In this document: piece by piece, positions 3,103 to 19,658 of the stretch
How the letters are laid out: each line of letters opens with the position of its first letter
How positions within the stretch are numbered: the first letter of the stretch is position 1
UHGV virus genome: UHGV-0171543
DNA: 19,658 nucleotides
DNA from: a virus
Direction: 5' to 3' (one strand)
Translations under genes and position numbers: made by a program
The notes under the pieces: generated by a model
Seen by the model: only the letters and a program-made list of their open reading frames with translations
Told to the model about the DNA's origin: nothing
Databases searched by the model: none

Positions 3103-3281
3103 CTTGTTTTCCTCGCACGTTCTCTAAGCCACCGGATATCCCACAGGTGAGCCGTGTAGTTGAAGGTTTTTACGTCAGATTCTTTTAGGATTGGCTTGGG
3201 TTTATTTCTGGAGCGTTTCGTTGGAAGGTATTTGCAGTTTTCGCAGATTATGTCGGTGATACTTCGTCGCTGTCGCCTCAT
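3099..3281 (-). CDS. ninE: NinE-like protein
   Basis: 60-aa [26 protein letters not shown]...[28 protein letters not shown], recalled as near-identical to lambda NinE. Confidence 0.8.
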
Positions 3282-3688
3282 TCATACCTCCTGTCGGTAA
3301 ATCTGACACCCTGACCAATAGCCCAGGCTGTTGTGTACTCGATCAGACTTGCCATACGCTTCACGCTCATCTGTGCGCTACTCTCCCGAATGTTGACGAA
3401 TTCGCCTTCAAGGCCGGGCAAAACATCAGCTTCCTGTTTTGTTGCCACTGCATGACCGCTGATCAACAAAACCTTCCATTGTTCTGGTTTTAACCATTTG
3501 CCGCACCATTGAACCTGACGAGCGATATCCGCCAGCATCGCGTGAAATTTTGCGTTCTGGTCAAGGTTGCGCTTGTAGTCAGTAATGCGGATGGTGACTG
3601 GCTTGTCTTTATCGAGTGGTGTTGCGAGGATGGCGTTGATTGCGGCTTGCTGTTGTTGCTTAGTTCGGAGGAATATTGTTTGCTTCAC
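3278..3688 (-). CDS. ninB: NinB (Orf) family recombination mediator
   Basis: 136-aa ORF with the [13 protein letters not shown] and WKVLLIS pattern, similar to lambda NinB (RSLDQNRKLWACL). Position is upstream of NinE. Confidence 0.75.
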
Positions 3689-12998: not shown

Positions 12999-13165
12999 GT
13001 TTTACAGATAACTGGTCAGACGAAGAATTCATTCGTCAGATGAAAGAATTAATCGGTAACGAAGGAGATATTCATGTCACTTGCAACCACAGTGAAGGAG
13101 AGCAAGTTACAGAGACGCATGTACACGCAGCAGGCGTTAATGTATCGCCAGAAGGGAGATCGTGA
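12995..13165 (+). CDS. Small hypothetical protein
   Basis: ATG at 12995 overlaps the kil stop (ATGA), giving 56 aa (MSFTDNWSDEEFIRQMKELIGNEGDIHV...). The ORF track begins it at an upstream GTG (12980). Confidence 0.4.
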   Translation: MSFTDNWSDEEFIRQMKELIGNEGDIHVTCNHSEGEQVTETHVHAAGVNVSPEGRS

Positions 13166-13252
13166 AGGTGTTCGCGTATTTTTAAATGCGGCAAAGACTG
13201 AAGTATTAAATCAGCGTTATTTCCTTGGGCCGTGTCCATTCTGAGGTGAATT

Positions 13253-13960
13253 ATGGATTTGAATAAATTCGATGAGCCATTCAGCCCTGAAGATATCGAA
13301 TGGCGAATACAGCAAAGCGGTAAAACACGCGATGGCAAAGTGTGGGCTATGGTGCTGGCTTATGTCACGAACCGGGCAATCATGAAACGCCTGGACGATG
13401 TTTGCGGCAAAGCAGGATGGCGCAATGAATACCGCGATATTCCCAACAACGGCGGCGTTGAATGCGGCATATCAATCAGGATTGATTCCGAATGGGTAAC
13501 CAAATGGGATGCTGCTGAAAACACGCAGGTAGAAGCCGTCAAAGGTGGTCGTTCCGGTGCAATGAAGCGCGCTGCCGTTCAGTGGGGAATCGGTCGGTAT
13601 CTGTATAACCTTGAGGAAGGTTTCGCACAAACATCTCTCGATAAAAAGCAGGGATGGCACAGGGCAAAACTCAAGGATGGAACAGGATTTTACTGGCTCC
13701 CTCCATCGCTGCCGGGATGGGCAATCCCAACATCAGATAACAAACCATCACCAGAAAATACCAACCAGAAATCTCCATCGGTTGACTGCGAACAAATCCT
13801 GAAAGACTTCAGCGATTATGCGTCAACAGAAACTGACAAGAAAAAACTCATCGAGCGTTATCAGCGTGACTGGCAATTAATGGCTGGTAACGAGGAGGCG
13901 CAGGCTAAATGCGTTCAGGTAATGAACATCAGAGTTAACGAACTAAAACAGGCGGCATAA
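13253..13960 (+). CDS. Rad52-family single-strand annealing protein (Sak-like core) with Erf-like C-terminal tail
   Basis: 235-aa ORF with GAGGTGA RBS. Rad52/Sak-type motif GGVECGISIRIDSEW...AVKGGRSGAMKRAAVQWGIGRYLYNLEE. The C-terminal segment ETDKKKLIERYQRDWQL...CVQVMNIRVNELKQAA resembles the P22 Erf C-terminus as recalled. Confidence 0.8.
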   Translation: MDLNKFDEPFSPEDIEWRIQQSGKTRDGKVWAMVLAYVTNRAIMKRLDDVCGKAGWRNEYRDIPNNGGVECGISIRIDSEWVTKWDAAENTQVEAVKGGRSGAMKRAAVQWGIGRYLYNLEEGFAQTSLDKKQGWHRAKLKDGTGFYWLPPSLPGWAIPTSDNKPSPENTNQKSPSVDCEQILKDFSDYASTETDKKKLIERYQRDWQLMAGNEEAQAKCVQVMNIRVNELKQAA

Positions 13961-14434
13961 ATGGGAAGTAGAGGCGTAAATAAGGTGATCATTATTGGTC
14001 GCCTTGGGCATGATCCAGAAATCAGATATTCACCATCAGGAACGGCATTTGCAAACCTTACAGTTGCTACGTCAGAACAATGGCGTGATAAGCAAACTGG
14101 AGAGCAAAAGGAGCAGACGGAGTGGCACCGCGTGGTAATGAGCGGGAAACTGGCAGAAATTGCCAGCGAATATCTGCGAAAAGGCTCTGAGGTTTATCTT
14201 GAAGGCAAATTGCGGACAAGAAAATGGCAGGATCAAAGCGGACAGGATCGGTTCACTACCGAAGTTATCGTGGGCGTTGGTGGAACCATGCAAATGCTTG
14301 GTGGCAAGCAAGGAGGAAATGAACAGTCTTCACCTCAGCGAAATAACGGTCAGCAACAAAGACAGCAACCTCAGCAGCAAGGGAATCACAGCGAACCACC
14401 TATGAACTTCGACGATTCGGATATTCCGTTCTAG
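13961..14434 (+). CDS. ssb: Single-stranded DNA-binding protein
   Basis: 157-aa ORF starting at the ATG immediately after the annealing-protein stop. OB-fold-like N-terminal region, Gly/Gln-rich linker, acidic C-terminal tail DDSDIPF. Confidence 0.9.
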
Positions 14435-14443
14435 GAGCTGAAT

Positions 14444-14923
14444 ATGAAAATCTGCTCAAGATGCCATCAACAGAAGGAAGAAAGGGACTTTCAAATCAGA
14501 AGAGCATCCAGAGATGGATTAACTGCCGCTTGCCGGGCTTGCCTGGCTGAATACGACAAAGAGCGCGCGGGATTGCCACATCGAGTATCAGCAAGGAGAG
14601 AATATCAATCATCGGAACGCGGCAGAGAACGGTGTAACGCAGCCAAAAAGCGGTTCATTCAGAGCAACCCATGGAAAAGAAAAGCCCACATCATCGTGGG
14701 TAATTTTTTGCGCGACGGTAAGCTAATCCGACCACCACAATGTGAGTGCTGCGGATCAGAATGTAAACCACAGGCGCACCACTGCGACTACAGCAAACCA
14801 ACCGATGTGATGTGGCTCTGCAAGTCATGTCATGTCGAGTGGCACAAACATAACAAACCTATCTACCCAGACGAGGAGCCAGTAACTCTCCCCTTCCCTC
14901 GTCACGCTATTCACGCAATTTAA
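14444..14923 (+). CDS. Putative HNH endonuclease with N-terminal zinc ribbon
   Basis: 159-aa ORF. N-terminal CSRCH...CRAC and C-terminal CECCGSEC...AHHCDYSKPTDVMWLCKSCHVEWH fit an HNH (His-Asn-His) nuclease motif with Cys ligands. Confidence 0.6.
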   Translation: MKICSRCHQQKEERDFQIRRASRDGLTAACRACLAEYDKERAGLPHRVSARREYQSSERGRERCNAAKKRFIQSNPWKRKAHIIVGNFLRDGKLIRPPQCECCGSECKPQAHHCDYSKPTDVMWLCKSCHVEWHKHNKPIYPDEEPVTLPFPRHAIHAI

Positions 14924-14936
14924 TCAGGAGAAAATC

Positions 14937-15230
14937 ATGCCAGCGCCTCTGTATGGTGCGGACGACGCGCGCCGCTGTTCCGGCAATTCCGTATCGGAGG
15001 TGCTGGATAAATTCAGAAAAAACTACGATCGGATAATGTCGCTACCGCAGGAAACGAAAGAGGAAAAGGAATTTCGCCACTGTATATGGCTTGCAGAGAA
15101 AGAAGAACGCGAGCGAATTTACCAGACATCAATCCGACCATTCCGCAAAGCCACATATACCCACTTCCCTGAAATTGACCCGCGCCTGCGTAATTACCGC
15201 TCACGCTATGGTGCTATCAGTAATGACTGA
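14937..15230 (+). CDS. Hypothetical protein
   Basis: 97-aa ORF with GGAGAAAA upstream, in the same operon. No recognised motif. Confidence 0.5.
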
Positions 15231-15403
15231 GGAATTTACCATGAGAGGACTTGCATACAATCCCGGCATTCTTCCGGCAGAAATGATTATTCGCCAACGC
15301 GTAAAGCCAATGCCATCGAGAGAGGAATTGCTTAAGAGAAATTCTTTTCCATCAGTGAATCAAACAAATATCTGAATACGATGTGGCGCAAAGGAGGCAA
15401 CCA

Positions 15404-15964
15404 GTGAGTGTAACGGTTGAAAAGATTGATGTGTTGTCATTCGTTATAACCGGTGCAGAGAGACTAGATCCGGTTCGAGTGATGATTGAAAACTACGAAC
15501 CTGGAAAGGGAAGAATCACCATCACCTGCTACGGAAAAGCGTGGACTGCGGCTTGGTTTGCTATGGGCGGTGATGATGTGCAGACGTTCATTAAGCGAGT
15601 CAGCAACGATTATCTAATCGACAATTTCGACCCTCAACTGCTAAGCACGGTCGACGATGACAACGATGCAAATCTGCTTTTCGTGAAGTCAGAAATCATA
15701 AAGTTACGAAGAGAGAGAGAAATAGACGTCGTACTGGCTCGCGAAATGTGGGACGAGGCGGAAAACGCCGATGACGTAAAAGAAAGCTGCTGCTGTTTCG
15801 GCGTCGGTAACAAACTACTGAATCTCTTTGGTGATGATCCGTGGTATGCCAACTGGCCAACGATACCAAACCCGAAATACCAGTATCTGGAACGCGTACT
15901 TAATGCAGTGAGAGACGGTCTTAAGCAAATAGATGCAGGAGAGCAAAGCGATGAAAAACCGTAA
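15404..15964 (+). CDS. Hypothetical protein
   Basis: Start taken as GTG 15404, preceded by AAGGAGG at 15391..15397 (the ORF track uses an upstream GTG at 15383). About 186 aa, acidic. No recognised motif. Confidence 0.55.
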   Translation: MSVTVEKIDVLSFVITGAERLDPVRVMIENYEPGKGRITITCYGKAWTAAWFAMGGDDVQTFIKRVSNDYLIDNFDPQLLSTVDDDNDANLLFVKSEIIKLRREREIDVVLAREMWDEAENADDVKESCCCFGVGNKLLNLFGDDPWYANWPTIPNPKYQYLERVLNAVRDGLKQIDAGEQSDEKP

Positions 15965-16127
15965 GGCAAAACGACTTTTTTTACAGCGACCTGTGCGTGT
16001 GGTGGAGCTGGTTATTAGCAACCATAAGATAGCGGTACTCCATCCATTTGGTCAGGTGGCTTTTGCCGCAAAGCGTAAGCCTACTGCGTCACAGAACAGG
16101 CGGAAGAAAGGGTACGCTGTAAGATGA
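15951..16127 (+). CDS. Small basic protein, paralog 1 (MKNRKAK... family)
   Basis: ATG at 15951 preceded by AGGAGA, giving 58 aa (MKNRKAKRLFLQRPVRVVELVISNHKIAV...). Its stop overlaps the start of the next paralog. Confidence 0.4.
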   Translation: MKNRKAKRLFLQRPVRVVELVISNHKIAVLHPFGQVAFAAKRKPTASQNRRKKGYAVR

Positions 16128-16315
16128 AAAACCGTAAAGCAAAGATGCTTATTTCCCGTGTATACAGACGTTGCTATCCCAGCCAATGGTTGAGGGTTAG
16201 CAATCGCCGTGTGGTGTTGTTTTCATTTTCTGGAATTGCCAGAGAGGGAGTCAAAGATAAGCGTAGCGCGGCGCAAAACCGCTGGAAAAACCACTTGTGC
16301 ACTAAAGGAGCGTGA
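16124..16315 (+). CDS. Small basic protein, paralog 2 (MKNRKAK... family)
   Basis: 63-aa ORF beginning with the same MKNRKAK heptapeptide as the upstream ORF; both are rich in Arg/Lys. Tandem arrangement. Confidence 0.4.
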   Translation: MKNRKAKMLISRVYRRCYPSQWLRVSNRRVVLFSFSGIAREGVKDKRSAAQNRWKNHLCTKGA

Positions 16316-16316
16316 T

Positions 16317-16832
16317 ATGGCGTTAACACACCGCGAACTCTGTCAGATTGCGTACAAGTTCCTTAAGCGCAACGGGTTCAAGGTTTGTTTTCATGACCGC
16401 TTTATAGCTGTAACCAGTACCGGAGAACAGCCAGATGCTATGGGATTCAGAAATTCAGCATCATGCCTGATAGAGGCGAAGTGTTCTCGTGCTGACTTGT
16501 TGGCAGATAGAAAAAAGCGTTTCCGTAAAAATCCGTCTCTTGGAATGGGCGACTGGCGATTCTTTATTAGTGAGCCGGGAATTATTTCAATTGAGGATTT
16601 ACCTCCCGGCTGGGGATTACTTCACGTTGTTAACGGAAGAGTACGGAAAGTACATGGATGGCCCAAGGGGAATTGCTGTTGGGGTAACCCTGAAGATAAA
16701 CCTTTTATTGGGAATAAGCAGGTTGAATGCGATTACATGTTATCTGCATTAAGGCGCATGGAGTTGAGAGGGCACCTTAATGAAATATATGACGGTGTAA
16801 TTGTTAATAAGAAAGAAGGAAACGCGGCATGA
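16317..16832 (+). CDS. Hypothetical protein with PD-(D/E)xK-like motif (possible nuclease fold)
   Basis: Start taken as ATG 16317, preceded by AAGGAG (the ORF track starts at 16209, inside the upstream paralog). 171 aa. The segment QPDAMGF...CLIEAKCSRAD has the D...E-x-K spacing typical of PD-(D/E)xK nucleases. Confidence 0.5.
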   Translation: MALTHRELCQIAYKFLKRNGFKVCFHDRFIAVTSTGEQPDAMGFRNSASCLIEAKCSRADLLADRKKRFRKNPSLGMGDWRFFISEPGIISIEDLPPGWGLLHVVNGRVRKVHGWPKGNCCWGNPEDKPFIGNKQVECDYMLSALRRMELRGHLNEIYDGVIVNKKEGNAA

Positions 16833-17761
16833 TCACTATTACCAAAGAGTTCACCAAAGAGCAGTTGATTGAGCAGGCTAAGAAGAATATTGAGGTTCTT
16901 CGCGTTGCGGTGGAAAGAGTCCCAGGCGCTTATGATGCGGCGGTTATTCATCTCAAGCTGGCTGAAATTACGCTGGCATCGCTGGAAGCAGAGCCTGTTC
17001 TGTATCAGTCCTGCACACGCCCCACCTGGAATAGCGGAGTTCCGTGGACGGAATGGAAAGAACGTAGTCGTGAGGGCTACGAAGACGATTTGCGCTTTAC
17101 AGACACGCCTGACCATGCCGGTTGGATAAACAAATGTCGAAAACTATATACCACTCCGCCAGCACCGATAGCGTTAGAGGCCATTGAAAACGCAATTGAA
17201 TATATCCGCAGTATCGCTTTTCACATCGATGAAGACGATTACCACGGCAAGCATATTGCGTATTTCATGCGACAAGCACTGGTCTGGCTGGAAGGGCATT
17301 CATGCAGCAACGACAGACAGGGTAAAGCCGAGAATCAACCAGTACGCGGCAACCAGACTGCCGAATCCAATCGCGGTAATGAGTGGACCGGCAATCCTGA
17401 TATTGATAACGCCATCATCATGCTCGATCGCATAGATACGCTGGAAAGTTGCGATGATGACCGTATTGAGGCGGTTAAGGCTGTTTTGCGTAGACTGGCT
17501 GGCAACTATCCGGTAACTCCGGATGGTTGGATAAGCTGTAGTGAGCGAATGCCAGAAATGGGAGAGCGACAATGCTATGTGTTAGCAGCTGACTTTAAAA
17601 ACAACTACCCACCAAACATCCCCAACACTCAGGTCGGCGTATATGGCGACTGGTTTAATGATGGCAATCCCACTTGGGATGACGGTGATGGCGAAGACCT
17701 GTATCTCAAAGAGGTAACCCACTGGATGCCGCTACCGGAACCGCCACAGGAGGTGAAATGA
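16829..17761 (+). CDS. Hypothetical prophage early-region protein (C-terminal region resembles the DUF551-type domain)
   Basis: 310-aa ORF translationally coupled to the upstream gene. The acidic, Trp/Pro-rich C-terminus (VTHWMPLPEPP) resembles DUF551-type prophage proteins; this assignment is from memory only. Confidence 0.5.
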   Translation: MITITKEFTKEQLIEQAKKNIEVLRVAVERVPGAYDAAVIHLKLAEITLASLEAEPVLYQSCTRPTWNSGVPWTEWKERSREGYEDDLRFTDTPDHAGWINKCRKLYTTPPAPIALEAIENAIEYIRSIAFHIDEDDYHGKHIAYFMRQALVWLEGHSCSNDRQGKAENQPVRGNQTAESNRGNEWTGNPDIDNAIIMLDRIDTLESCDDDRIEAVKAVLRRLAGNYPVTPDGWISCSERMPEMGERQCYVLAADFKNNYPPNIPNTQVGVYGDWFNDGNPTWDDGDGEDLYLKEVTHWMPLPEPPQEVK

Positions 17762-17822
17762 TGCTTGGCCTGAAGTATTTTATGTAATTGGTATTGCTAT
17801 ATTTTTATCTGGGGATAAACGA

Positions 17823-18065
17823 ATGTTCTCTCTGATTCAACGTGGTCAGATATACACCGATAGCGCTGGCTATCCAGTAAAAATCATTCGTAGTACTGAT
17901 CACTCAGTGTTCTTCAAGAGGATGGATGGCTATCCTGGAAGGGTGTGCATCAGAAAATTCAATAATTTATTCGAACACATTGATCACAGAGAATATCACC
18001 AGATCCTGGCTGAAACAGAACAGGAGAACCATCTGAAAAAATTACGTGCCATGCAAAGGAGATAA
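17823..18065 (+). CDS. Hypothetical protein
   Basis: 80-aa ORF in the same orientation. No recognised motif. Confidence 0.45.
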   Translation: MFSLIQRGQIYTDSAGYPVKIIRSTDHSVFFKRMDGYPGRVCIRKFNNLFEHIDHREYHQILAETEQENHLKKLRAMQRR

Positions 18066-18145
18066 ACCGGTAAAGGTGTTCGCGATAAAGGTGAATATCG
18101 GCAATGAATAACAATCCTCGAACTCGCGGGGATTTCTTTTATCTG

Positions 18146-18170
18146 AACTCGCTACGGCGAGTTTTGTTTT
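18146..18170 (+). terminator. Putative rho-independent terminator in the pL operon upstream of xis
   Basis: AACTCGC-TACG-GCGAGTT 7-bp stem-loop followed by TTGTTTT. Confidence 0.45.
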
Positions 18171-18183
18171 ATGGAGATGATAA

Positions 18184-18351
18184 ATGCACTTCCGAGTCAC
18201 AGGTGAATGGAATGGAGAACCATTCAACAGAGTTATCGAAGCAGAGAACATCAACGACTGCTATGACCACTGGATGATATGGGCGCAGATAGCACATGCA
18301 GACGTAACCAATATTTGTATTGAAGAACTGAAAGAACACCAAGCCGCCTGA
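18184..18351 (+). CDS. Small hypothetical protein (55 aa) upstream of xis
   Basis: ATG at 18184 with GGAG upstream. Hand translation MHFRVTGEWNGEPFNRVIEAENINDCYDHWMIWAQIAHADVTNICIEELKEHQAA. Size and position resemble the small ORF next to xis in lambda, as far as I recall. Confidence 0.45.
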   Translation: MHFRVTGEWNGEPFNRVIEAENINDCYDHWMIWAQIAHADVTNICIEELKEHQAA

Positions 18352-18363
18352 TGGCGGTTTTTT
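18344..18363 (+). terminator. Putative rho-independent terminator
   Basis: CCGCC-TGAT-GGCGG stem-loop followed by TTTTTT, overlapping the stop of the 55-aa ORF. Confidence 0.5.
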
Positions 18364-18390
18364 CTTGCGTGTAATTGCGGAGACTTTGCG

Positions 18391-18609
18391 ATGTACTTGA
18401 CACTTCAGGAGTGGAACGCACGCCAGCGACGCCCAAGAAGCCTTGAAACAGTTCGTCGATGGGTACGCGAGTGCAGGATATTCCCTCCTCCGGTTAAGGA
18501 TGGAAGAGAGTATCTGTTCCACGAATCAGCGGTAAAGGTTGACTTAAATCGACCAGTAACAGGTAGCCTTTTGAAGAGGATCAGAAATGGGAAGAAGGCG
18601 AAGTCATGA
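18391..18609 (+). CDS. xis: Excisionase
   Basis: 72-aa ORF MYLTLQEWNARQRRPRSLETVRRWVRECRIFPPPVKDGREYLFHESAVKVDLNRP..., matching lambda Xis as recalled. Its 3' end overlaps the int start. Confidence 0.92.
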   Translation: MYLTLQEWNARQRRPRSLETVRRWVRECRIFPPPVKDGREYLFHESAVKVDLNRPVTGSLLKRIRNGKKAKS

Positions 18610-19658
18610 GCGCCGGGATTTACCCCCTAATCTTTATATAAGAAACAATGGATATTACTGCTACAGGGACCCAAGGACGGGTAAAGAGTTTGGATTAGGC
18701 CGAGACAGGAGGATAGCAATCACTGAAGCTATACAGGCCAACATTGAGTTATTTTCAGGACACAAACCACAAGCCTCTGACAGCGAGAATCAACAGTGAT
18801 AATTCTGTTACGTTACATTCATGGCTTGATCGCTACGAAAAAATCCTCGCCAACAGAGGAATCAAGCAGAAGACACTCATAAATTACATGAGCAAAATTA
18901 AAGCAATAAGGAGGAGTCTGCCTGATGCTCCACTTGAAGACATCACCACAAAAGAAATTGCAGCAATGCTCAATGGATACATAGACGAGGGCAAGGCGGC
19001 GTCAGCCAAGTTAATCAGATCAACACTGAGCGATGCATTCCGAGAGGCAATAGCTGAAGGCCATATAACAACAAACCCGGTCGCTGCCACTCGCGCAGCA
19101 AAATCAGAGGTAAGGAGATCAAGACTTACGGCTGACGAATACCTGAAAATTTATCAAGCAGCAGAATCATCACCATGTTGGCTCAGACTTGCAATGGAAC
19201 TGGCTGTTGTTACCGGGCAGCGAGTTGGTGATTTATGCGAAATGAAGTGGTCTGATATCGTAGATGGATATCTTTATGTCGAGCAAAGCAAAACAGGCGT
19301 AAAAATTGCCATCCCTACAACATTGCATGTTGATGCTCTCGGGATATCAATGAAGGAAACACTTGGTAAATGCAAAGAGATTCTTGGCGGAGAAACCATA
19401 ATTGCATCTACTCGTCGTGAACCGCTTTCATCCGGCACAGTATCAAGGTATTTTATGCGCGCACGAAAAGCATCAGGTCTTTCCTTCGAAGGGGATCCGC
19501 CTACCTTTCACGAGTTGCGCAGTTTGTCTGCAAGACTCTATGAGAAGCAGATAAGCGATAAGTTTGCTCAACATCTTCTCGGGCATAAGTCGGACACCAT
19601 GGCATCACAATATCGTGATGACAGAGGCAGGGAGTGGGACAAAATTGAAATCAAATAA
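18587..19658 (+). pseudogene. int: Lambda-type tyrosine integrase disrupted by a +1 frameshift (single extra C near 18767..18768)
   Basis: Residues 1 to about 58 (MGRRRSHERRDLPPNLYIRNNGYYCYRDPRTGKEFGLGRDRRIAITEAIQANIELFSGHK) are in one frame and stop after 70 codons. The rest of Int (HKPLTARINSDNS...DKIEIK, with catalytic-domain motifs) continues in another frame. The span is 1072 nt, not a multiple of 3. Removing one C from CACAAACCACAAG restores the lambda reading HKHKPL. Confidence 0.85.

Follow-up and report, generated by a model that had tools for sequence, protein, structure and literature searches.

The segG gene of bacteriophage T4 is a free-standing endonuclease gene located between genes 32 and 59, and its product cuts gene 32; several free-standing endonuclease genes of T4 are promoter-less cassettes within host operons (PMC2988022). 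I-KsaII is an intron-encoded endonuclease in polA of Staphylococcus phage A5W (PMC5618024). The characterised zinc-ribbon HNH enzymes are site-specific nickases (PMC3592412). Caulobacter MmcB is described as an SOS-induced PD-(D/E)xK endonuclease that cells require to tolerate mitomycin C and cisplatin (PMC9578287). Here, we analysed the virus genome UHGV-0171543, a stretch of 19,658 nucleotides (nt) referred to as the window, and two of its plus-strand genes, gene A (14444..14923, 159 amino acids) and gene B (16317..16832, 171 amino acids). Both are real open reading frames (ORFs), as a first-pass annotation had stated, and each is preceded by a Shine-Dalgarno sequence. The annotation's suggestion of a homing-type endonuclease is the best-supported reading of gene A. 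We favour, with modest confidence, the view that gene A is a free-standing homing-type endonuclease cassette at the 3' end of ssb, the gene for the phage single-stranded DNA-binding protein (SSB). Judged by sequence comparison, gene B belongs to a phage-carried sister family of MmcB.

Results

Gene A is inserted directly behind the last sense codon of ssb

The ssb gene (13961..14434, plus strand; Pfam PF00436, E 2e-38) encodes a phage SSB whose C-terminal tail, read directly, ends in the canonical tip ...DDSDIPF. The junction between ssb and gene A (14420..14443, plus strand) consists of the D-I-P-F codons (GATATTCCGTTC), the hexamer TAGGAG and a 6-nt spacer. TAGGAG doubles as the stop of ssb and the Shine-Dalgarno sequence of gene A, 7 nt ahead of the ATG at 14444. 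Comparison with related loci suggests that this junction is the insertion point and a candidate target site of the cassette. The same junction architecture is present in loci L049 and L083.

Gene A is present at full length in 98 of 5426 complete Escherichia coli genomes, and approximately 300 more contain only its last 45 nt, located inside ssb. In the T1-like phages, most relatives of phiEB49 lose similarity to it at the end of ssb. Rogue1, for example, has no gene behind ssb, and its junction reads ...GATATTCCGTTT TAA followed by a terminator. At the corresponding position, phiEB49 has ...GATATTCCGTTT, then approximately 510 nt containing the gene, and then the same terminator as Rogue1. 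The insertion defined by this pair begins exactly after the IPF codon and stops before the shared terminator. Comparing E. coli W, which lacks gene A, with either MB06231 or the window, both of which carry it, revealed an indel whose left boundary falls right after the Phe codon and whose right flank is identical.

A 45-nt element and a divergent ssb end accompany the insertion

In phiEB49-type insertions, and likewise in loci L082 and L167, the ssb frame continues for 15 codons into the cassette (APIGLQYGMSNIYVL). The SSB of E. coli W has a homologous 15-residue extension after IPF (APVTLPFPRHAIHAI), encoded by a 45-nt element (positions 1501-1545 of locus L166), with no endonuclease gene. 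Comparison with the prophages lacking gene A showed that these 45 nt lengthen ssb by 15 codons there, and that in the window (14879..14923, plus strand; PVTLPFPRHAIHAI and stop) they make up the final 14 codons and the stop of gene A. The 45-nt element is the reason why the Sf6 record notes 14 residues shared with an E. coli SSB. We considered the extension as an ancestral feature of SSB and rejected this; in T1-like phages it is coded by the left end of the inserted cassette. The alignments suggest that the element is the scar of an earlier cassette. The simplest history would be an invasion, a loss that left the left-end scar, and a second invasion at the same nucleotide.

Approximately 300 complete E. 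coli genomes encode a prophage SSB in which the canonical ...DDDIPF tip is followed by the 15 extra residues. The C-terminal Phe, normally free for binding SSB partners, would be buried in these proteins.

The ssb genes of carriers and non-carriers also differ next to the insertion. We aligned 1182 nt of the window and E. coli W, covering the annealing-protein gene and ssb. Over approximately 1120 nt the two sequences show 0-3 differences per 60 nt, but the last 60 nt of ssb contain 15, mostly synonymous and located in the codons of ...FDD(S)DIPF. This clustering is how target-site immunity or a co-conversion tract would be expected to look. Gene A thereby displays three properties of free-standing homing genes, namely sporadic presence, a defined insertion site, and differences in the target of the carrier allele.

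These observations bear on an alternative in which gene A encodes a dedicated nuclease of the recombination module. The enzyme would be a nickase or a structure-specific endonuclease that works with the Rad52-type protein, SSB and Abc2-modified RecBCD, possibly recruited by SSB, and makes or processes recombination substrates. We regard this as rather unlikely. It does not predict that insertions should begin cleanly at a single nucleotide and be accompanied by a cluster of synonymous differences, and most close relatives of the same modules lack gene A, as seen in the roughly 300 E. coli genomes without it versus 98 with it, and in the T1-like phages, where homology mostly ends at ssb. The compact arrangement of the window, on the other hand, is what a module component would show. 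Gene A is packed between ssb and abc2 with gaps of 9 nt and 13 nt, respectively, and is contiguous with the genes for the annealing protein, SSB and the anti-RecBCD protein, as a nuclease gene of the lambdoid recombination (Rec) module would be in the Casjens/Smith 2025 scheme. The first of these (13253..13960, plus strand; Pfam PF04098, E 7e-26) encodes a Rad52/Rad22-type single-strand annealing protein and opens the module, and the last, abc2 (14937..15230, plus strand; Pfam PF11043, E 6e-63), closes it. The first-pass annotation had placed both nuclease genes between the recombination module and xis, in the ea region; this holds for gene B, whereas gene A lies inside the module.

Gene A encodes a predicted zinc-ribbon HNH endonuclease

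The gene A protein is 100% identical to the gene 26 protein of Shigella phage Sf6 (Q716E9, AAQ12215; annotated in RefSeq as "endonuclease"), which occupies the same place between ssb and abc2, so that nothing differs between the two. The protein is encoded on at least 1000 contigs. We found no experimental characterisation of the Sf6 gene 26 protein in the literature, including genetic data.

In an alignment of 38 homologs with 34-97% identity, residues C100, C103, H112, H113, D115, Y116, P119, W124, L125, H130, W133, and H134 are invariant, and C4, C7, C30, C33, C126, and C129 are at least 90% conserved, C129 being replaced by His in a few homologs. The string AHHCDY...WLCKSCHVEWH, on which the first-pass annotation had based its HNH motif, is present, and its motif residues are invariant or nearly invariant. 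Conservation of this extent, here and in gene B, is far beyond chance. A confident AlphaFold model (predicted local distance difference test, pLDDT, 92) comprises a zinc ribbon, four helices (residues 31-91) and a beta-beta-alpha unit (residues 110-136). The N-terminal zinc ribbon (14453..14542, plus strand) has the pattern C4-x2-C7 ... C30-x2-C33, with beta strands in residues 1-30 of the model. The HNH (beta-beta-alpha-metal) unit (14741..14845, plus strand) contains C100-x2-C103, H112-H113, D121, C126-x2-C129-H130, and H134. Its strands span residues 110-113 and 122-125 and its helix residues 127-136, with H112-H113 on the first strand and H130 and H134 on the helix. Model and alignment thus agree on a His at the end of strand 1 and a His on the helix, the arrangement of the HNH (His-Me finger) fold, and C100/C103 together with C126/C129 form a [CxxC]2 structural zinc site.

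PHROG 2340, named "endonuclease", matches gene A with an E-value of 3e-47, and a Foldseek search against viral models returned 33 matches at E <= 1e-3, many of them named HNH endonuclease, HNHc or endonuclease VII. The library searches by which the first-pass annotation proposed to confirm the families are negative, although the folds are real: scans with Pfam, NCBIfam, and PADLOC recognised neither gene A nor gene B at threshold. The isolated HNH domain of gene A scores 9.8 bits against a PF01844 cut-off of 21.4 and is collinear with model positions 1-45 of 47. A single-sequence search of the PDB gave no match, and profile searches of the PDB gave nothing beyond chance matches and a "nicking endonuclease" that the isolated HNH domain retrieved at E ~1. 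In a Foldseek search against the PDB, the HNH folds of Cap5 and PacI appeared weakly, at E ~1.7, amid zinc fingers. Taken together, the alignment and the model indicate that gene A encodes a small putative DNA endonuclease in which four helices link a zinc ribbon at the N-terminus to an HNH unit, held by a [CxxC]2 zinc site, at the C-terminus.

Two groups of described enzymes resemble this architecture. I-KsaII, encoded by a group I intron in polA of Staphylococcus phage K/A5W (Kayvirus), is homologous to gene A over residues 2-134, covering the zinc ribbon, the linker, and the HNH unit; the copy of phage A5W shares 34.9% identity over 84% of the length (E 1e-20). I-KsaII lies inside an intron of a polymerase gene, whereas gene A is free-standing behind ssb. 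The nicking endonucleases of phages and prophages described by Xu and Gupta in 2013 are, like gene A, small proteins with an HNH unit, a [CxxC]2 zinc site, and an extra zinc ribbon, but they are packaging nickases encoded beside cos sites and terminase genes (PMC3592412). No sequence match between gene A and these enzymes was obtained. That the characterised zinc-ribbon HNH enzymes are nickases also accords with a nickase of the recombination module (PMC3592412).

Some entries grouped with gene A were set aside. SSB entries in its 90% cluster are ordinary SSBs and were rejected as true relatives; they probably joined the cluster through rare SSB-HNH chimeras. Rare chimeric ORFs (P0131, P0134, P0173) of two types were seen in E. 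coli: one fuses the N-terminal part of SSB in frame to the C-terminal part of the HNH protein, with the junction at a shared IVG, and the other joins the first 57 residues of gene A to a fragment of a 3'-5' exonuclease. These are presumably deletion products in decaying prophages.

Gene A itself is left unannotated by RefSeq/PGAP in E. coli, with "none" recorded under the match in all eight full-length rows listed (H81-H88). In three inspected prophages (L002, L164, L165), a gap of approximately 500 nt without annotation separates ssb from the next gene; an intact ORF of 159 codons was checked in L164 and L165.

Relatives of gene A follow SSB genes in different recombination modules

We then compared the position of gene A across phages. 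Of the 79 IMG/VR loci whose upstream sequence is long enough, 76 have an SSB ORF that ends within 60 nt upstream of gene A. In two of the exceptions, L081 and L083, an SSB of another family (PHROG 743) takes that place, behind a Sak4-type annealing protein, and the third, L067, carries a 5'-truncated copy of gene A with no SSB detected. Relatives at approximately 40% identity also follow ERF-SSB pairs, and four annotated phages (Vibrio D79, Klebsiella VLCpiS13b, Escherichia Sortsne, and Ralstonia GP4) have an SSB gene immediately ahead of the A-like gene. The order is Sak4, Mu Gam, SSB, A in VLCpiS13b; exonuclease VIII, Erf, SSB, A in Sortsne; and exonuclease VIII, Erf, gp26, A in the T1-like phiEB49, where gp26 is an unnamed SSB-like, ERF-adjacent protein ending in IPF plus the extension. 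The family is thus accompanied by annealing proteins of the Rad52, ERF or Sak4 type and by SSBs of two families. In all 14 junctions read upstream of A-family genes, and with either SSB family, the motif D-[IV]-P-F stands at or near the C-terminus of SSB.

The constancy of this order, SSB then A, across Rad52, ERF, and Sak4 modules and in temperate and virulent phages, is a second argument for a nuclease serving the recombination module. An analogous order of annealing protein, SSB, and HNHc_6 is reported for staphylococcal phages (PMC8093625), and a survey from 2025 regards such HNH genes as likely module members (PMC12315714). The distribution of the family also contains features that fit this role poorly. 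Gene A also occurs in modules in which exonuclease VIII or a DnaQ-like exonuclease is already encoded. Other family members lie in the polA intron, between two coding sequences annotated as DNA polymerase in Bacillus phage W.Ph., and beside tail-fibre genes in Vequintavirinae and phiTE-like phages.

For the homing cassette that we favour, we propose that the family stands behind unrelated SSB genes because the sequence coding for D-I-P-F is universally conserved. It is plausible that the D-[IV]-P-F coding sequence is a common target across SSB families. More specifically, and tentatively, the A family may be a homing lineage that recognises the coding sequence of the universally conserved C-terminal tip of SSB (GAT ATT CCN TTY), a proposal that we put forward with less than even confidence.

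Several loci show further rearrangements near ssb. At the 3' end of ssb in Vibrio phage D79 (L173 2390-2420), GACATCCCGTTCTAA is otherwise intact but has 9 inserted nt, including a stop codon, ahead of it, and in Klebsiella phage VLCpiS13b (L174 2430-2460) the last 12 nt of ssb are partly duplicated just past the stop. The T1-like Escherichia phage C119 (L182 1007-1501) has, between erf and ssb, an inserted gene for a different HNH endonuclease, and the recombination module has therefore been invaded at more than one boundary. In many relatives, whether or not they carry gene A, an optional gene for a 3'-5' exonuclease (Rv2179c-like, PF16473) separates the ssb/A junction from abc2 (for example, L165 2033-2581, L049 5483-6040, and L166 1554-2102).

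Gene B is related to the MmcB family

Gene B is preceded by AGGAG, 6 nt ahead of its ATG at 16317. Among 65 homologs with 34-60% identity, residues D40, D60, G78, and R81 are invariant, and E37, P39, E53, K55, S57, R58, D64, K67, and R70 are at least 90% conserved. The string QPDAMGF...IEAKCSR, from which the first-pass annotation had read a PD-(D/E)xK-like spacing, is likewise present, with motif residues that are invariant or nearly invariant. Both genes encode nuclease folds with catalytic residues intact, as it had supposed. Candidate catalytic residues are D27, E37, D40 (16434-16436), E53 (16473-16475), and K55 (16479-16481). The AlphaFold model (pLDDT 87) has an alpha-beta-beta-beta-alpha-beta core, in which P39-D40 lie just ahead of strand 2 (residues 41-45) and E53-x-K55 at the end of strand 3 (residues 48-54), with K55 just past it. 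Model and alignment together therefore place an Asp at the start of strand 2 and (D/E)xK on strand 3, as in the PD-(D/E)xK core.

Nearly all top PDB fold matches found by Foldseek are PD-(D/E)xK nucleases, including the R2 endonuclease domain, AF1548, Hjc, BspD6I, and Bax1. A single-sequence search of the PDB gave no match. The family profile matches PDB entry 3dnx (SPO1766; MmcB family, PF06319) with an E-value of 5e-5, and hhalign of the gene B family against an MmcB alignment gave a probability of 97.8% (E 1e-12) over 120 columns that include ExK-SRxDF-D-K. The core is thus homologous to that of the MmcB family (PF06319; 3dnx; Caulobacter MmcB), and the D, ExK, and SRxDF-D-K motifs as well as the C-terminal helix correspond. 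Unlike MmcB, gene B is phage-borne, has an extra conserved segment (GMGDWRF, WGLL), and has no known link to SOS regulation or a translesion polymerase. We treat gene B as a sister family of MmcB, not a member, because the Pfam PF06319 gathering score was not reached. At threshold, gene B matches only PHROGs of unknown function (9263 and 631).

The family is large. It has 3313 representatives at E <= 1e-3 among 50%-identity clusters, occurs in 643 phage records, including Stx phages, Klebsiella and Vibrio phages, and Ackermannviridae, and is present in 910 of 5426 E. coli genomes. Neighbour clustering in 80 loci revealed no conserved partner, the best cluster covering 22 loci. The gene for a DUF551 protein (16829..17761, plus strand), whose ATG overlaps the stop of gene B (ATGA), is its most frequent downstream neighbour but not a constant one.

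Homology suggests that gene B would encode a metal-dependent endonuclease whose substrate is damaged or branched DNA and which would be of use once DNA damage induces the prophage; this is our best guess and the most likely role. The protein would be made from the early-left operon upon induction. Several observations caution against this assignment. The Foldseek matches in the PDB are individually weak (best E 0.02), the Pfam MmcB-like family is weakly matched by 4 of the 65 family members (best E 0.0027) and not by gene B itself at E <= 1, and neither a conserved neighbour in the 80 loci nor a defence-system context in the PADLOC scan provides a functional clue. Pfam Hjc is weakly matched by 10 of the 65 members (best E 3.8e-4), and the phage already codes for the RusA resolvase. 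The Hjc matches, and the presence of archaeal Hjc structures among the fold matches, could also be taken to mean that gene B is an Hjc-like resolvase of Holliday junctions or branched DNA for phage recombination and packaging. This is distinctly unlikely, as the profile-profile match to MmcB is much stronger, gene B is unlinked to the recombination module, and the nin region already supplies RusA and the nuclease YbcO.

The two ORFs upstream of gene B (15951-16127 and 16124-16315, plus strand; PHROG 1380) are tandem paralogs with 41% amino-acid identity. They encode small, very basic proteins of 58 and 63 amino acids that both begin with MKNRKAK and whose function is unknown. The stop of the second overlaps the start region of gene B, and PHROG 9263 includes versions in which a segment resembling these ORFs is fused to the gene B domain.

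A role in anti-restriction, anti-defence or superinfection exclusion was also considered for gene A, gene B or both, the nucleases degrading DNA of the host or of competitors, or defence signalling molecules. The accessory early-left operon also carries SieB and other accessory genes, gene B is sporadic with variable neighbours, and the N-terminal 69 residues of gene A weakly match a Lar-like restriction-alleviation PHROG (E 7.5e-7). The Lar-like match is limited to the zinc ribbon, neither gene has a PADLOC match, no immunity partner or defence-island context was seen, and the closest characterised relatives of gene B are repair enzymes. Such a role is very improbable, and the anti-restriction and exclusion functions offered by the first-pass annotation gained nothing in their favour.

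Organisation of the window

The window is a segment of a lambdoid, Sf6/P22-like prophage. Genes for lysozyme, holin, Q, RusA, YbcO, and NinB lie on the minus strand at its left end; the genes of this nin region encode the RusA resolvase (1953-2315), the putative nuclease YbcO (2312-2623), and NinB (3278-3688). Counting the nin region, the element carries at least four nuclease-type genes. The early-left operon, on the plus strand, is directed toward xis and int and contains, in order, genes for the Rad52-type annealing protein, SSB, gene A, Abc2, a DUF2737-like ORF, a 193-amino-acid protein, the two small paralogous ORFs, gene B, DUF551, DUF4222, and Xis. The annotation of Sf6 has the same gene order from the 322-amino-acid protein through Abc2. 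The 193-amino-acid protein (15383..15964; PHROG 3451) is of unknown function; in the PADLOC scan, its residues 66-122 match a model of a type II restriction enzyme at borderline significance (E 0.003). Scans of positions 13000-18700 found three promoter-like sites, fewer than the shuffled mean, and 11 terminator-like sites, approximately twice the shuffled mean; none of them sets gene A or gene B apart as a transcription unit.

Discussion

We suggest the following course of events for gene A. The cassette, which most likely lacks a promoter of its own, sits right after the final Phe codon of ssb and would be transcribed with the early-left operon. The enzyme would nick or cut the 3' end of ssb in related phages or prophages without the cassette. 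The recipient would then be repaired by recombination with the carrier, helped by the neighbouring annealing protein and SSB, and would thereby acquire the cassette along with approximately 30-60 nt of the adjoining ssb. The carrier would be guarded against self-cutting by the synonymous changes in its own final ssb codons. T4 segG is a precedent, as it also lies beside the gene for a phage SSB, is transcribed in an existing operon, and targets the SSB gene of relatives without segG (PMC2988022). SegG is a GIY-YIG enzyme whose fold is unrelated to that of gene A, and its activity and marker exclusion have been demonstrated, whereas for gene A we infer cleavage, target, and mobility.

Several points weigh against homing. 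A protein that works with SSB or with the recombination module would equally be expected to have a constant place behind SSB. Lambdoid phages commonly exchange segments at gene boundaries, and such mosaicism could give both presence or absence and local divergence without homing. As for the enzyme, the canonical HNH Asn is apparently Asp or Glu in the gene A homologs shown in the alignment, the equivalent residue D121 being placed by spacing alone (five residues before C126), and Pfam HNH PF01844 matches gene A below threshold only (E 1.2; best family member E 0.0045). Reports of cleavage, target or mobility for the gene A protein or I-KsaII were not found in the searched literature. In addition, the 2025 survey treats tightly packed HNH genes as likely members of the recombination module and provisionally counts them as the nuclease of the lambdoid module, although it urges caution because HNH genes are mobile (PMC12315714). 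The homing and module roles are compatible, as a resident cassette could have been co-opted.

Both genes fall within known kinds of system. For gene A, already known as the ORF Sf6 gene 26, the reading offered here is new and can be tested, and this work flags the gene as omitted by RefSeq annotation at every E. coli site inspected. Gene B belongs to an uncharacterised family now tied to MmcB, and this link provides its first testable hypothesis, the processing of damaged or branched DNA after induction. For gene A, homing predicts nicking or cutting of cassette-free ssb 3' ends near GATATYCCNTTY and protection of the ssb-A junction of the window. A further prediction is that this natural endonuclease is specific for a sequence shared by almost all ssb genes of bacteria and phages.

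The history proposed for the cassette would account for the unusual prophage SSBs whose C-terminal tip is blocked. If the A family does recognise the tip-coding sequence, one cassette family could invade the ssb genes of unrelated SSB families in both temperate and virulent phages, and repeated invasion and decay would leave scars, among them the prophage SSBs, encoded in approximately 5% of complete E. coli genomes, in which 15 extra residues bury the IPF tip. The insertion-site evidence suggests mobile cassettes landing at the 3' end of ssb, and the gene content of recombination modules may then have to be read differently: HNH genes now counted as nucleases of the module would be its parasites, not its parts.

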